This document shows positions 24,342-56,310 of a stretch of 64,000 nt of DNA, piece by piece; the stretch's first letter is position 1; the number at the start of each line of letters is the position of its first letter. The position numbers and the translations under genes are program-made. This stretch comes from an uncultured Chloroflexia bacterium (lineage in GTDB: Bacteria > Chloroflexota > Anaerolineae > Aggregatilineales > Aggregatilineaceae). The notes beneath the pieces are model-generated. The model worked only from the letters and a program-made list of their open reading frames with translations. It had not been told where the DNA came from and searched no databases. The stretch spans positions 300,645 through 364,644 of the forward strand of contig CAVWCQ010000008.1 in assembly GCA_963753545.1 (NCBI GenBank). Direction: 5' to 3'.

Positions 24342-24486
24342 TCCCTCAGATAGACGCATAAAAACAGTGTAGCGGGAACGAAAGTTATCCGCTGGGCGCT
24401 TGCCTGCCGCCTGCCTGATTTTGCTGCTGAGAATAAAGCACGGATGTGCTACAATTGGGGGCATCCGAGCAAAGAGAGAGCGATGT

Positions 24487-26383
24487 ATGAGCGACTATAT
24501 ACCCAGCGCACATATCCAGGACATCTTACAAAACCTTCCGGCGTCACCCGGCGTGTACCAGATGATCGATCCCAACGGCATGATCATCTACGTGGGCAAG
24601 GCGAAGAGCCTGCGCAACCGCGTGCGGAGCTACTTCCAGCCGAGCAACTATGACTCGAAAGTGCTGCGGCTGCGGGCCGAAGTGGCCGATATCCAGTTTT
24701 TGCTGACCGGGGATGAACTGAAGGCGCTGATCACCGAAGCGGAGTTGATTCGCGTCCACAAGCCGCGCTTCAACATTCTGCTGAAGGATGACAAACATTA
24801 CCCGTATATCCGCGTGCGGACGGGCGATCCGTTCCCAACGGTTGAAATGACGCGGCGTTTGGAACGCGGCGACGGTCACCGCTACTTTGGGCCGTTCACC
24901 TCGGCGGGGGGTGTGCGCGAGACGCTGGATGTGCTGCGCAAGGCGTTCCCCTATCTGACCTGTGATCGCGAGATCACCGGGAAGGATGCTCGCGCCTGCC
25001 TCTATTACGATATCAAACTGTGCGGCGCGCCGTGCATCGGGGCGCAAACGCGCGATGAATACTGGGCCGGGATTACCGGGCTGATGCGCGTGCTGGCGGG
25101 CCATGCCGACGAGGTGCTGGCGGATCTGCGTGGGGCGATGGAAGCCGCTTCGGAAAATCTGGACTTTGAGAAGGCGGCGCTGCTGCGGGATCGGATTCGC
25201 GTCGTGGCGCAGATTTCGGCCCGGCAGCGGTTGGTGCGCTGATTTTGAAGCGAACCAGGACGTGATCGCCTTCGCGCAGGAGGGCAGCGACGCCGTCGTG
25301 CAGATGTTCCTGATCCGCAATGGCAGACTGGTTGGCAGCGAATATTTCGCCCTGTCCGGCGCGGAAGACGAAACCGCCGACGAGATTATCGAACACTTCC
25401 TGACGCAGTTTTACCAGGAGGCCACCGACATCCCGCCGGAAGTGGTCGTGCCGAACGATCTGATCGAGACGAAGATCATCGAGCAGTGGCTGCGGGATCG
25501 GCGCGGCGGCAAAAAGGTCAAACTGGTCGTGCCCCAGCGCGGCAACAAGCGCGAACTGGTCCAGTTAGCGGCTCAGACTGCCTCGGAGAAACTGAATATT
25601 CTGCGGGCGCAGTGGGCCAGCGATACCGTCAAACAGGAAGCCGCGCTGAGCGAAATCCAGGAGGCGCTCAGTCTGCCGACGCCGCCCAACCGGATCGAGT
25701 GCTACGACATCAGCACGACGCAGGGCACGGCGATTGTCGCCAGCCGGGTTGTGTTTGTGCAGGGTGTGCCCAAAAAGGGCGAATACCGCCGCTTCAACAT
25801 CCAGACGGTGGCTCACGAAGGATCGGACGATTACCAGTCGATGCGGGAGGCGCTGACGCGGCGTTTCCGGCGCTATACGGATGCGGTCAACGCCGAACAG
25901 GCCCCACTGCCGCCCGGCAAAGAGGATCACGAGGAAACGTGGCGGGTGCTGCCTGATCTGCTCATTGTGGACGGCGGCAAGGGGCAGTTGGGCGTGGCGG
26001 TGGAAGTGCTGCAAAGTTTCGATCTGTTTGGGCGCGTACCTGTGTGCGGCCTCGCCAAACAGTTCGAGGAACTCTACCTGCCCAACGATCCCAAACCCGT
26101 TATTCTGCCGCGCCGCAGCGAGGGGTTGTTCCTGCTGCAACGGGTGCGGGACGAGGCGCACCGCTTCGCGATCACGGCCCATCGTGCCCGCCGCGCCAAA
26201 GCAGGACTTGCCAGCCAACTGGAACAGGTACCCGGCATCGGCCCGGCCCGGCGCAAAGCCCTGCTGAGGGCATTCAACAAGGATATCGAAGCGATTCGCG
26301 CCGCCAGCATCGACCAATTGATCACCGTGCCGGGTATCACGCGGGAGATCGCGGAGAATATCAAGGCGACATTGGGGGGCTAG
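24487..26383 (+). CDS. uvrC: excinuclease ABC subunit C with an apparent frameshift near 25238
   Basis: GIY-YIG N-terminus (GVYQMIDPNGMIIYVGKAKSLRNRV). UvrC C-terminal RNase H-like and HhH regions are in the second frame (25103..26383). Confidence 0.85.
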
Positions 26384-50991: not shown

Positions 50992-52243
50992 ATGAATGAG
51001 CCACTGCCTTTGGGCGAAAACTTTGCAAGTATTAAAGTGGTTGGGATCGGCGGCGGCGGCGGCAACGCGGTCAACCGGATGATCGAAGAAGGTTTGGGCG
51101 GCGTTGAATTTATTGCGATTAACACCGACGCACAAGCCCTCCTGCTCAGCAAGGCCAAGACGCGTGTTCGCGTTGGCGAAAAACTGACGCGCGGCCTCGG
51201 CGCAGGTGGAAACCCCGATGTAGGCCGTAAAGCTGCCGAAGAAAGCGCCGACGAACTGTATGAAGTGCTGCGCGGCGCGGATATGGTGTTTATTACCAGC
51301 GGCATGGGCGGCGGAACGGGCACAGGTGGTGCCCCGGTGATCGCGCAGGTCGCCAAAGAACTCGGCGCGCTGACCATTGGCGTGGTGACACGTCCGTTCA
51401 CGCTTTGAAGGATCGCGCCGCATCCAGGGCGCTGAAGCGGGCATCGAAGCGCTGAAAAGCCAGGTGGATACGCTGATCGTGATCCCCAATGACCGCCTGC
51501 TGCAAATCGTGGACAAGCGCGCCAGCCTCAACGATGCTTTCCGGCTGGCTGATGATGTGCTGCGGCAGGGTATCCAGGGCATTTCCGAACTGATCACCGT
51601 TCCTGGCCTGATCAACCTGGACTTTGCCGATGTCCGCACGATTATGTCGGAAGGTGGGGCGGCGCTGATGGCAGTCGGTCGTGCCAGCGGCGAAGATCGC
51701 GCCCGCAAGGCCGCCGAAGAAGCGATCAGCAGCAGCCTGCTCGATGTGACCATCGACGGCGCGCGCGGCATCCTGTTCAACGTGACGGGCGGCCCCAATA
51801 TGAGCCTGTTTGAAGTGAACGAGGCCGCCGCGATTATCAAGGAAACGGCGCACCCCGACGTGAACCTGATCTTTGGCGCGGTGATCGACGAGAATATGGC
51901 GGACGAAATCCGCATTACGGTGATCGCCACCGGATTCGAGCAGTCTCGCGTGGCGACACGCCGCCCGGTGAATGCTAACGAGCGCATCCGCCCGGCAGCA
52001 GCGAATACAGCGGCCCGCCCGGTCGCTCGCCCGGCACAACAGCCGCAGCAGCAACCCCAGCAGCCGCCTCAGCAGCCCCAGCAGAACCAGGATTTGCTGG
52101 ACGATGACCTGGAACTGCCCGGCGCGCCGCAGCAGTCACAGCCGCAGCAGCAACCTGTGGTGCGCAAGCCCGAAGAGGAATTCACCTCACGGGTGTACGA
52201 CACAAATGACCTGGATATTCCGGCGTTTTTGCGCCGCCGCTAG
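50992..52243 (+). CDS. ftsZ: cell division GTPase FtsZ with an apparent frameshift near 51400
   Basis: GGGGNAVN and [13 protein letters not shown] tubulin motifs in frame 1, ending VVTRPFTL*. The continuation (F)[32 protein letters not shown] and the rest run in frame 2 to the conserved C-terminal peptide [13 protein letters not shown]-rich linker. Confidence 0.9.
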
Positions 52244-52606: not shown

Positions 52607-52654
52607 CCCCCACATATGGGGGGTGGATGGCAGTGGAACCCCCATATATGGGGG
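52607..52654 (+). promoter_or_regulatory. pair of NrdR-box-like palindromes upstream of nrdR-nrdJ
   Basis: CCCCCACATATGGGGG (52607-52622) and CCCCCATATATGGGGG (52639-52654), centres 32 bp apart, ~80-125 nt upstream of nrdR. Confidence 0.55.
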
Positions 52655-52731: not shown

Positions 52732-53244
52732 ATGAAGTGTCCGTACTGCGACGCGGATAATGCATCGTCTGTCATCGACACGACACGCGATTTGCAGGAT
52801 GGCATCCGTCGCCGGCGGGAGTGCCAGGTTTGCGGGCGGCGTTTCAGCACCTATGAACGCGTGCTGCGGGCCACACCGCTGCTGATCAAAGGAAATGGGG
52901 ATCGGGAAGCGTTTGACCGGGAGAAACTGATCCGGGGGATTCGGATTTCCTGCGCGAAACGCCCTATCCCTGCCGCTGCTATCAATGATCTGGTGGACCA
53001 GATCGAAACGCACCTTCAGAACATGGGACGCGATGAAGTCTCCAGCCGGGTCGTAGGGGATATGGTGATCGAGGGGCTGAAAGCACTCGATCCGATTGCT
53101 TATATCCGCTATGCGATTGTTTACCTGGGGCTGGACAGTTTGACCAGTGTACGGGATATGCTGGACAGCTTGCTGGGCGAACGAAATGTGCCCGTGAACT
53201 TGCAGGATGGTGCAAGTTCGGAGCCTGACGCGCCGCCGTCCTAA
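52732..53244 (+). CDS. nrdR: transcriptional repressor NrdR
   Basis: Zinc ribbon MKCPYCD...CQVCGRRFSTYERV plus ATP-cone. Confidence 0.9.
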   Translation: MKCPYCDADNASSVIDTTRDLQDGIRRRRECQVCGRRFSTYERVLRATPLLIKGNGDREAFDREKLIRGIRISCAKRPIPAAAINDLVDQIETHLQNMGRDEVSSRVVGDMVIEGLKALDPIAYIRYAIVYLGLDSLTSVRDMLDSLLGERNVPVNLQDGASSEPDAPPS

Positions 53245-53351: not shown

Positions 53352-56310
53352 CTGCACAAGGAGATGGAAATGGTGGATGTGAGGAAGAAGAAGAACAAAG
53401 ATGTTGATCCGCGTGCAAATGGCTTTCAGAAGTTGACGTTACCGTCCGACCTATCGCGCGATATCCCGCTGGGGGAGAACGCGCGAACGGTGCTGCGCAA
53501 ACGGTATCTGCGGCGCGGCGAAGACGGCCAACCCGTTGAAACTGAACAGGAAATGTTCTGGCGCGTTGCCTATCATGTCGCGAAGGCCGAGGAAGAATCG
53601 GGCGGCGATGTGGACGGGGCAGCGCGCTCTTTTTATCACCTGCTGACGGATTTACGATTCTTCCCGAACAGCCCGACTTTTACCGGGGCGGGTACTCCGC
53701 TGGGGCAGCTTGCCGCATGTTTTGTGCTCGCCATCGAAGACGATATGGGCCGGACAGGCACGGGCATCTTCGAGACGCTGCGCAATGCCGCGCTGATCCA
53801 GCAGACGGGCGGCGGCAACGGCTTTTCGTTCAGCCGTTTGCGTCCCAAAGGGGCGATTGTGCGCTCATCCAACGGCGAGGCAACCGGGCCGATTGGCTTC
53901 CTGCGCGTCTACGATCAGGCGTTTGGGGAGATCGCTCAGGGGGGAGTCAAGACGTGGGGCGAATATGGCTGTATTGCGGGTGGATCATCCCGATGTGCGC
54001 GAATTCATCACCTGCAAGACGGACGAGAACCAGATCACCAATTTCAACATCAGCGTGGGCATAACGGATAAGTTCATGTCCGCTTGTGAAAAAGACGAGG
54101 ATTTTGACCTGATTAACCCGCAGGATGGCAAGGTCTGGGAAACCGTTCGGGCGCGCGAATTGTTCGATCTGATCGTCAAGCATGCCCATCACAACGGCGA
54201 GCCGGGCGTGCTGTTCCTGGATGCCGCCAACCGCGATAATCCCGTGCCACATCTATACGAATTGGAGAGTACGAATCCTTGTGTGACTGGGGATACGCTT
54301 GTCGCGACTCCTGCTGGTTGGCGGCGAGTAGATGAGATTCAGGCCGGGGATGTGATCTGCACGGTTCTCGGCACTGGGCGCGTTGAAACGGTCGAGGTTC
54401 ACGATGCGATGCCCGTTTACGCGGTGCATTTCTCCGATGGCGGCATGGTAAAGGCGACAGCAGCCCATCAGTTTTATGTGTATGATCCCCTGTCTGATTC
54501 CTATGTGCCGCGCCGGGTTGACCGCCTTCGTTTGGGCGAAGCCGTGCATGTGTTCCAGCCTGTGATGGCGGGTATGGTGGAAGCAGAGCAGGTCGATCAG
54601 ACTGCAACAGTGGTTCAGATCGAAGAGGCCGGAGTTGATACGGTGTACGACCTCTATGAGCCGGAAAGCGATACCTGGATCACCGAAGGGTATGTCTCGC
54701 GGGGCTGCGGCGAGCAGTTCCTTGGCCCATATGAAAACTGCTGCCTGGGATCGATCAATCTGGCCCAGCATATCACGGCGGATGATCGCGTGGATTGGGA
54801 CAAACTGCGCGAAGCGGTCGAACTGTCTACGCGCTTCCTGGATGATGTCGTATCCGCGAACAAGTACGTGCCCGCCGTGCCGGAGCTAGAGAAAGCCGCT
54901 CACCGCGTTCGCCGCATTGGGCTGGGGATCATGGGGCTGGCGGATATGATGTATGCGCTCGGCGTGCGCTACGGCTCCGTCGAGGGGCAGGAATTTGCCA
55001 GCCAGATCATGGAATTTGTGCGCTTCCACGCCATGCGGACCAGCATCGAACTGGCGCAGGAGCGCGGCCCCTTCCTGGCAATTGAGGGCAGCATCTATGA
55101 TCCCGCCAATCTGAAGTGGCAGCCGCCGAAGTCGCTGGTTCCGTATAAACACGACTGGGGCCGTCCGGCACTGGATTGGTCGCTGATCGTGGCGGGGATC
55201 AAAGAGCACGGAATTCGCAATGGGGCGCAGTTAACTACCGCTCCAACCGGAACAATTTCTACGGTTGCGGGATGCGAGGGTTACGGCTGCGAACCTGTCT
55301 TCGCGCTGGCCTATATGCGCTATGTGAACGACAACGGCAAAAAGCTCACGCTGCAATATACCAGCCCGCAGTTCGAGAAGGCGCTGCGCGACGCCGGGCT
55401 GGATGATCCGACAATCAAGCGCATTGTCGAGCAGGTGAACCAGACAGGAACCTGCCAGCATATCAAGGAAGTGCCGGAGCATATCCGCCGCGTGTTTGTC
55501 GTCAGCGGGGATGTAAGCGCTGAGGAGCATGTTCGGATGCAGGCGGCACTGCAATCGTTCACTGACAATGCTATTAGTAAAACTGTGAATTTTCCCGTCG
55601 GGGCTTCTGAAAAGGATGTAGCGACGGCCTATATGCTCGGCTGGAAGCTCGGCTGCAAGGGGCTGACCGTCTATGTGACCGGGAGCCGCGAAAAGGTCGT
55701 GTTAGAGACGGCGGAAACGGCGAAAAAGAAGGAAGCGCCGCAGCCTGCCCCACAGCCCATCGCGCAGAGCAAGACACTCTTTAACGAGGAAAAGAAACCA
55801 CGTCCCCGCCATCTATCGGGCAAGACGTACCGCGTCCAGACGCCGCTCGGATCAACTTATGTGACCGTCAATGAGAACGGCGAAGGCGCGGGCCAGCCTT
55901 TCGAGGTCTTCCTGCACAACGCCAAAGCCGGATCGGAGACCGCGGCGGTATCGGAAGCGCTGGGGCGGCTGATCTCCTACCTGCTGCGCCTGACCTCAAC
56001 GGTCAGCCCGCGCAACCGCCTGACCGAGATCGTCCGGCAGTTAAGCGGCATCGGCGGCGGGCAGTCGGTTGGATTCGGCCCGGCGCGGGTGCGGAGTTTG
56101 CCGGATGGCGTGGCGCAGGTCTTGCAGGAATACCTGGACGAGAGCGAAGGACTGCTCGATGAGTCCGTTCCGGCGGCGGAACCTATATCGGAGAAACAGC
56201 TCACGCTGCCGTTGAAGCTGGGCGATCTGTGCCCGGAGTGCGGATCGGCTACGCTGGTCAATGAGGAAGGCTGCCGCAAGTGTTATAGCTGCGGGTTCAG
56301 CCAGTGCTAG
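53352..56310 (+). CDS. nrdJ: adenosylcobalamin-dependent ribonucleotide reductase (class II, NrdJ) containing a mini-intein. Apparent frameshift near 53950 at an extra A in GTCAAGACG.
   Basis: [40 protein letters not shown]...[19 protein letters not shown]-terminal Cys cluster. Removing one A restores [20 protein letters not shown]. Confidence 0.85.
54280..54705 (+). other. 142-aa mini-intein inserted in the NrdJ NPC-GEQ active-site motif. Non-canonical C-terminus.
   Basis: Block A CVTGDTLV, block B TAAHQF, block [23 protein letters not shown], then +1 Cys (CGEQ). The last two residues are RG rather than HN. Confidence 0.7.

Follow-up and report, generated by a model that had tools for sequence, protein, structure and literature searches.

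A mini-intein ending in glycine at the active site of a class II ribonucleotide reductase, and its Gly-terminal relatives in bacteria, archaea and viruses

All accepted schemes of protein splicing, those of class 1, class 2 and class 3 inteins alike, finish with cyclisation of the last intein residue. The residues that activate the cyclisation of a terminal Asn are the His at F:13, the His at G:6 and the Asn at G:7 (Mills, Johnson and Perler review, PMC4031507), with the block-F His deprotonating the terminal Asn and steadying the tetrahedral intermediate (PMC4031507). The reviews of 2014 and 2020 give Asn, Gln, Asp and Glu as the only terminal residues. The Gln-terminal inteins Pab PolII and CIV RNR (RNR, ribonucleotide reductase) are natural cases of non-Asn ends that still splice (PMC4031507), and a C-terminal Asp intein, Chy RIR1, is credited to Amitai, Dassa and Pietrokovski (J Biol Chem 2004) in the passages of PMC4031507 and PMC4760082 that cite it. 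Here we describe a 64,000-bp stretch of DNA from an uncultured Chloroflexia bacterium (contig CAVWCQ010000008.1; the whole stretch is called the window hereafter) in which nrdJ, encoding a class II RNR (Pfam Ribonuc_red_lgC, E 1e-104), carries a 142-residue insert ending in Arg-Gly. With a probability of about 0.6, we consider this insert to be an active mini-intein whose C-terminal cleavage would occur without cyclisation of the last residue, probably via the relocated carboxylate of Asp131.

The insert, 426 nucleotides on the forward strand, is in frame and stop-free, and extends from the TGT codon of Cys1 (54280-54282) to the GGC codon of Gly142 (54703-54705; all features are collected in Table 1). 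The N-extein preceding it reads ..LYELESTNP and the C-extein resumes at CGEQ, giving the insertion site NP/CGEQ (a slash marks the splice junction throughout). The intein-less homologues P0013 and P0015 carry NPCGEQ contiguously across this site, which fixes the boundaries, apart from the ambiguity that the shared Cys brings, and alignment to spliced NrdJ gives one single insertion point common to all related loci. A preliminary description of the window had reported a Hint insertion in the NPC/GEQ motif of NrdJ; its coordinates and frame turned out to be exact to the base, the blocks A, B and F that it named are all present, and the Arg-Gly that it placed before Cys+1, where His-Asn would be usual, can be read directly. 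A downstream motif, ..PYEN/C.., was considered as the true intein end and ruled out, as it belongs to the extein in intein-less alleles. A frameshift hiding a His-Asn at the terminal codons was likewise considered: the three frames of 54680-54720 were read and none of them encodes His-Asn.

Profile matches to the insert are modest, with Pfam Intein_splicing and Hint_2 scoring below their gathering thresholds (30.3 versus 35.8 bits). Using the insert as a phmmer query, the solved DnaB and gp41-1 inteins were matched with an E-value of 2e-5. The AlphaFold2 model (pLDDT 85, pTM 0.80) contains one disordered linker at the location usually occupied by the endonuclease, and a Foldseek search with this model returned the Ssp DnaB mini-intein as the best match (PDB 1mi8 and 6frh; E 3e-10, TM-score 0.75-0.78), followed by gp41-1, Npu DnaB and dozens of further inteins, BIL structures being more distant. 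A search of the PDB with the C-terminal 39-mer retrieved only Kelch-repeat proteins, through a chance match to 'YDPETDTW'. As modelled, the insert is a genuine HINT domain with a normal fold.

The ending of the insert is shared by a large family. Among the GTDB species, each represented by a single genome, 41 loci were found to encode relatives of the window intein. The carriers belong, within the Chloroflexota, to Anaerolineae, Caldilineaceae, Ardenticatenaceae, Thermoflexales and Aggregatilineales, and elsewhere to Rokubacteria/Methylomirabilota, a Patescibacterium, Halobacteriales and Thermoplasmata. The C-terminal junction could be read at 40 of these loci, all of which end in [ST]DTWITEGY[VI][SQ][RQ]G/CGEQ, and at 38 loci both junctions are in frame without a stop. 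Members are either mini-inteins of 131-167 amino acids or inteins of 317-362 amino acids with a LAGLIDADG endonuclease (PF14528 in P0009). HMMER, run exhaustively over 1.84 billion cluster representatives, returned 631 matches, 118 of them at E<=1e-10; among 138 collected proteins with an alignable junction, mostly from this search, 110 have the terminal Gly. In addition, Gly-terminal inteins were found inside NrdJ open reading frames (ORFs) of 690-1490 amino acids on 17 IMG/VR viral contigs. The IMG/VR carriers (L042-L060) are viral contigs of 10-340 kb, which suggests that viruses may move the Gly-terminal intein between bacteria and archaea. No match to the family was obtained by tblastn against PLSDB plasmids, and tblastn against GenBank phages returned only the distant CP1201 RIR1 intein, with no cultured or annotated carrier. 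A C-terminal profile search combined with a cluster look-up yielded almost no named proteins and turned up neither a cultured organism nor an InBase entry for the family. Many of the related NrdJ proteins (L003, L006, L007, L015-L022, L025, L039 and L040) contain two or three inteins each, in ORFs of up to 2662 amino acids; the recurrent sites are K/SGGG, GGG/T, QGG/[ST]RRGAN, NEA/C, PTG/T and SK/T, and the inteins occupying them all have canonical HN ends. Judged from these sequences, NrdJ is an intein hotspot in those phyla.

The departures from a canonical intein are confined to the C-terminal module. In 141 Gly-terminal sequences, Cys1, the block B His and the block-F Asp are each present in 141/141, Cys+1 in all, and the block B Thr in 135, replaced by Ser in the other 6. 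The window intein retains every family-invariant residue. Blocks F and G align without a gap to those of canonical inteins at the same site (e.g. ..VYDLTEPTTHSFIGNGILLHN/C), with exactly three replacements: the block-F His, located 11 residues ahead of the terminal Asn, by Asp131, the penultimate His by Arg141 and the terminal Asn by Gly142. The penultimate residue, tabulated for 110 proteins, is Arg (83), Gln (18), Val (5), Leu (2) or Lys (2). The ending ..[SQN][RQVLK]G/C recurs in ~140 independent sequences.

The Asp at position -12, in place of the block-F His, is strictly associated with the terminal Gly. It occurs in 141/141 Gly-terminal inteins, while the Asp-terminal inteins of the same site (..ETLTWITNGFISLD/C) have Leu or Phe there in 13/13 and none of the 13 Asn/Gln-terminal inteins has an Asp, this position being mostly His and otherwise Ser, Glu or Asn. 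As Asp(-12) is found only with Gly ends and is absent with Asp ends, the carboxylate is either terminal or at -12. Gly-type and Asp-type inteins have the T-W-[IV]-T-x-G signature in common. At a second acidic position, residue 39, 128 of the 141 Gly-type sequences have Glu and 3 have Asp, where Asp- and Asn-terminal relatives have Tyr or Phe; Glu39 and Asp131 may form a carboxylate pair. A salt bridge of Glu39 with Arg(-2) was considered and rejected, covariation being against it: Glu39 persists when Val or Leu is at -2. The covariation of Asp(-12), together with the kinship with Asp-terminal inteins and a frameshift upstream of the insert (see below), goes beyond the preliminary description.

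Selection on the ending was assessed from the last 16 codons of 39 sequences, i.e. the genome-locus members plus the window. Gly(-1) is present in 39/39 and uses all four codons (GGA 7, GGC 15, GGG 11, GGT 6), Arg(-2) is present in 36/39 with all six Arg codons, and D-T-W-I-T-E-G-Y is fixed while synonymous changes are free. Since the terminal residues are kept with synonymous codon variation, it is the protein and not a DNA motif that is under selection. For 13 rokubacterial mini-inteins, which have no homing endonuclease that could preserve them selfishly, the median ratio of non-synonymous to synonymous substitution rates (dN/dS) is 0.127, compared with 0.146 in the adjoining 130 extein codons. 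Within the Gly group, identity in the remaining splicing domain averages 40% and falls as low as 18%, with the unusual residues constant. At all related loci, nrdJ can be read without interruption across the two exteins. The same host proteins also provide an internal control: additional inteins at other sites have canonical ..HN/T or ..HN/S ends, and intein ends are therefore not generally blurred in those hosts or assemblies.

A relative that has indeed changed has another appearance. P0028 is a free-standing, decayed 151-amino-acid copy of the rokubacterial mini-intein, with its own start codon, on an 89-kb JGI contig. Its block B His is a Tyr, Asp(-12) a Gln and Trp(-10) a Ser, Gly(-1) is lost, and it ends in ..CRR/CGE followed by a stop; it may be a fragment of a pseudogene or else a HINT domain that has been domesticated. 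Inteins of the window type do not resemble this decayed one, in which the block B His, Asp(-12), Trp(-10) and Gly(-1) have all disappeared jointly. Overall, the conservation pattern indicates that the odd ending is no error and no isolated case of decay. The preliminary description had predicted a defective or mechanistically unusual C-terminal cleavage; of these two readings, the purifying selection on the odd residues and the intact hosts favour the second.

These features place the insert close to, but not within, the described classes. Like class 1 inteins, it is an in-frame insertion at a conserved site with a HINT fold, Cys1, a block B T-x-x-H and Cys+1. The cyclisable C-terminal Asn of that class (rarely Gln, Asp or Glu) is replaced by Gly142, and the helper residues, which are common though not obligatory, by Arg141 (penultimate His) and Asp131 (block-F His). 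Class 2, the KlbA type with Ala1 and attack of Cys+1 on the N-terminal amide, is excluded by Cys1 in 141/141. Class 3 inteins are defined by Trp in block B, Cys at position 4 of block F and Thr in block G and usually have no N-terminal nucleophile (PMC2807308); this class is excluded by Asp124, rather than Cys, at block F position 4 and by the presence of Cys1. BIL domains lie in variable, non-conserved proteins and often have no +1 nucleophile; this type is excluded by the host, a conserved NrdJ active-site loop, and by the invariant Cys+1. Nor is the insert a hedgehog domain. The Asp-terminal Chy RIR1 type does not apply either, the terminal residue being Gly and the Asp being at -12.

The closest relatives are the Asp-terminal and the canonical inteins occupying the same site. 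The canonical ones (e.g. P0012, ..LIANGLVAHN/CGEQ; P0149, ..FVANGIVVHN/CGEQ; P0174) share the host, the site, Cys1, the block B T..H, the block-F Asp, Cys+1 and an identical length from YDL to the end, and P0012 resembles the family further in having an endonuclease-domain tail; they differ by keeping the block-F His (or Ser, Asn or Glu) as well as the His-Asn at the end. The Asp-terminal RNR inteins have the same site, N-x/C-[GSA]-E, a similar block F/G (..T-W-[IV]-T-x-G..) with a hydrophobic or non-His penultimate residue, and likewise lack both catalytic His and rely on a carboxylate instead of an amide, but they end in a cyclisable Asp with Leu or Phe at -12 where the window clade has Gly and Asp, respectively. 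The 13 Asp-terminal sequences collected here are presumably of the Chy RIR1 type. Compared with the Gln-terminal inteins, in which Gln cyclises to a glutarimide, the Gly of the window clade offers no side chain. The Ssp DnaB mini-intein shares the HINT topology and the mini-intein size, with only ~20% identity and a canonical His/His/Asn C-terminal module. More distantly, class 2 and 3 inteins, BIL domains and hedgehog proteins illustrate that the HINT fold can work with nucleophiles in another order or of another kind (PMC2807308, PMC7664689), and hedgehog proteins are also processed at a Gly/Cys bond. In class 2 and 3, however, it is the N-terminal steps that vary while the Asn end is kept, whereas the window clade has N-terminal steps that look canonical and a variant C-terminal step; BIL and hedgehog domains, unlike this clade, do not reside in conserved enzymes and need no +1 nucleophile for ligation.

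In the mechanism that we propose, the first two steps would be ordinary: Cys1, assisted by Thr60 and His63, would form the thioester at Pro-Cys1, and Cys+1, with the block-F Asp124, would receive the N-extein. The third step must depart from the textbook scheme because a terminal Gly cannot cyclise. The carboxylate needed for release would have shifted from the terminal residue, as in the Asp-terminal Chy RIR1, for which splicing has been shown experimentally, to the neighbouring strand, at the position where the catalytic His is normally in contact with the terminal Asn. From there Asp131 would attack the Gly142 carbonyl to give a transient mixed anhydride, or else activate a water molecule, with Gly142 supplying room and backbone freedom for Asp131, and a final S-to-N shift would yield NPCGEQ. 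Its position, covariation and conservation make a role of Asp131 the best-supported model. Amitai, Dassa and Pietrokovski reportedly found in 2004 that an Asp-to-Ala mutant of Chy RIR1 still cleaved C-terminally, and are said to have concluded that cyclisation was no explanation; if so, this would be an experimental precedent for cyclisation-independent cleavage in a sister lineage.

Several points weigh against this reading. What speaks for splicing of the Gly-terminal inteins is their conservation, and we know of no direct precedent for a carboxylate attacking, or hydrolysing, a peptide bond in a HINT fold. The Asp131 model does not account for Glu39, the clade-specific second carboxylate. 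The link between Asp(-12) and Gly(-1) may stem from a single ancestral event, in which case it shows that the two are maintained together, not that they are chemically coupled. In a neighbour-joining tree of the splicing domain without its last 13 residues, the Asp-type is nearer to the Asn-type than to the Gly-type, and the tree thus gives no support to an immediate change of the Asp-type into the Gly-type; note that this tree has no reliable root, its midpoint falling inside the diverse Gly group, so that neither the direction nor the number of switches can be read from it. Finally, no description of a Gly-terminal intein was found in the open-access literature, even with literal motifs as queries, and the novelty holds within that scope.

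The main alternative, though we consider it unlikely, dispenses with Asp131 and lets sulfur chemistry alone break the Gly142-Cys+1 bond. Either Cys+1 would undergo an N-to-S acyl shift onto the Gly carbonyl and its freed amine then attack the N-extein thioester, or the liberated Cys1 thiol, with His63, would attack the Gly carbonyl after branch formation; these routes would produce an intein thiolactone that is hydrolysed or becomes a head-to-tail cyclic intein. An N-to-S acyl shift operates at the G/C sites of hedgehog proteins and Ntn-hydrolases, and the Gly/Cys junction, invariable here, is from general chemical knowledge the most favourable context for it. Moreover, Cys1, His63 and Cys+1 are all invariant, and every member sits at a Cys+1 site, none at Ser/Thr+1. 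Such chemistry would nevertheless be reversible absent an irreversible step, has no experimental precedent among inteins, and leaves unexplained both the invariant Asp(-12) found with the terminal Gly, unless this Asp is a general base, and the His-Asn that canonical inteins keep at the very same Cys+1 site. Far less weight goes to a non-covalent outcome, in which hydrolysis at both junctions would leave a two-piece NrdJ. Chy RIR1 C-terminal mutants are said to undergo N- and C-terminal cleavage without splicing, in keeping with this outcome. Split nrdJ genes also exist in some phages (PMC3653736). The break would, however, lie at the tip of the catalytic loop and put charged termini beside the active-site Cys, as inferred from what is known of RNRs; the full class-1 N-terminal machinery and Cys+1 are kept, as ligation expects, and the same site is held by canonical splicing inteins.

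It is also improbable, if slightly less so than the two-piece enzyme, that the intein and its gene are both dead, the C-extein never being released, with nrdJ a pseudogene and an RNR encoded elsewhere as substitute. Mutation of the terminal Asn abolishes C-terminal cleavage in the inteins studied (PMC4031507). Two properties of the window would favour the dead gene and count against an active intein: nrdJ has a 1-nucleotide frameshift upstream of the insert which, if real, would make the intein irrelevant in this genome, and our census of RNR genes covers the 64-kb window only. Yet the ending is under purifying selection in ~140 sequences from two domains and viruses, host ORFs are intact at all other loci, the window copy keeps all family-invariant residues where the truly decayed P0028 looks different, and ftsZ and uvrC are frameshifted as well, a sign of indels in the assembly and not of a decay confined to nrdJ. 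We regard as practically negligible the idea that the terminal codons were missequenced or that the boundary lies elsewhere at a canonical Asn, two outcomes that the preliminary description had itself raised. Indel errors do occur in the window, but no indel would turn His-Asn into Arg-Gly, a change that takes a minimum of three or four substitutions, and no alternative frame holds a His-Asn. The same ending recurs in ~140 independent assemblies with synonymous codon variation, and the junction is set by the intein-less alleles and by the gap-free alignment of blocks F and G.

Table 1. Features of the nrdR-nrdJ region, in window coordinates
Feature	Position	Strand	Basis
Two NrdR-box-like 15-bp palindromes, CCCCCACATATGGGG and CCCCCATATATGGGG, 32 bp apart	52607..52654	+	sole matches in the 64-kb window
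nrdR, 170 amino acids, MKCPYCDADN.. zinc ribbon and ATP-cone, directly upstream of nrdJ	52732..53244	+	ORF, sequence pattern
nrdJ N-extein part 1, first frame; Ribonuc_red_lgN and start of the barrel	53370..53946	+	ORF, Pfam
Extra nucleotide, CAG GGG GGA [G] TCA AGA, breaking the frame at ..AQGG/SRRGAN.. (here the slash marks the break)	53944..53947	+	relatives in frame, QGG[ST]RRGAN
nrdJ N-extein part 2, second frame, ending ..LYELESTNP	53947..54279	+	ORF
Mini-intein, HINT domain without homing endonuclease, Cys1 to Gly142	54280..54705	+	motifs, homology, AlphaFold2 model
Block A CVTGDTLV, with Cys1 as N-terminal nucleophile	54280..54303	+	Cys1 in 141/141 family members
Glu39, second carboxylate peculiar to the Gly-terminal clade	54394..54396	+	family alignment
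Block B TAAHQF (Thr60, His63)	54457..54474	+	family alignment
Asp124, block F position-4 Asp (VYDL)	54649..54651	+	141/141
Asp131 (position -12), in place of the block-F His; proposed C-terminal cleavage carboxylate	54670..54672	+	family alignment
Arg141-Gly142 (CGG GGC), replacing His-Asn	54700..54705	+	direct reading, family alignment
nrdJ C-extein from Cys+1 (active-site Cys of NPCGEQ), rest of the barrel, TSCPD domain, stop included	54706..56310	+	ORF, Pfam

The window copy of nrdJ has three candidate start codons after an AAGGAG ribosome-binding site, ATG at 53364 or 53370 and GTG at 53373. A single surplus nucleotide, ~335 nucleotides upstream of the intein, disrupts its reading frame. 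Two other housekeeping genes are interrupted as well: ftsZ (50992-52243) has an extra base at ~51400 (TRPFT[c]FEGSRR) that splits the tubulin GTPase domain at profile position 152, and uvrC (24373-26381) is split at ~25085-25240, which separates GIY-YIG/UVR from RNase H/HhH. With three housekeeping genes broken by at least three indels in 64 kb, the breaks point to an indel-prone assembly (e.g. from unpolished long reads) and not to decay of nrdJ, whose frameshift is probably an assembly error. The nrdJ break coincides with a canonical intein site of L003, L017 and L019 (QGG/C...HN/[ST]RRGAN); this could be a coincidence, assembly trouble at an intein-plus/minus polymorphism, or a repair scar. 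At its C-terminus (window 56100-56310), NrdJ has a Cys-rich tail after TSCPD (PF12637); the tail is similar to a zinc ribbon, or to the redox-active C-terminus known from some class II RNRs.

The palindromes lie ~80-125 bp upstream of nrdR. We take them to be NrdR boxes from the known tandem-palindrome architecture of such boxes, and it is plausible that they govern an nrdR-nrdJ operon. The NrdR control assumed in the preliminary description is accordingly best read as plausible, on the grounds of the adjoining nrdR upstream and of the two palindromes unique in the window. That description had also called nrdJ the only RNR gene of the window, and no further RNR active-site motif was found in the 64 kb.

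The Gly-terminal clade at this RNR site is large and previously unremarked. Intein-finding pipelines that demand a terminal Asn will overlook this abundant family or set its boundaries wrongly. A tentative proposal, to which we give slightly less than even odds, is that these RNR inteins make up a fourth class by mechanism, spread over bacteria, archaea and viruses and unnoticed by the field, with excision without terminal cyclisation and a carboxylate at the block-F His position, possibly helped by Glu39. If it is true, a succinimide-free cleavage governed by a carboxylate could provide cleavage and ligation tools that are switchable by pH. The clade would make testable whether a HINT fold can release the C-extein without cyclisation, a long-standing question raised by the odd C-terminal cleavage of the Chy RIR1 mutants, and a Gly-ending clade maintained by purifying selection would break the rule that splicing is completed by cyclisation of the last residue.

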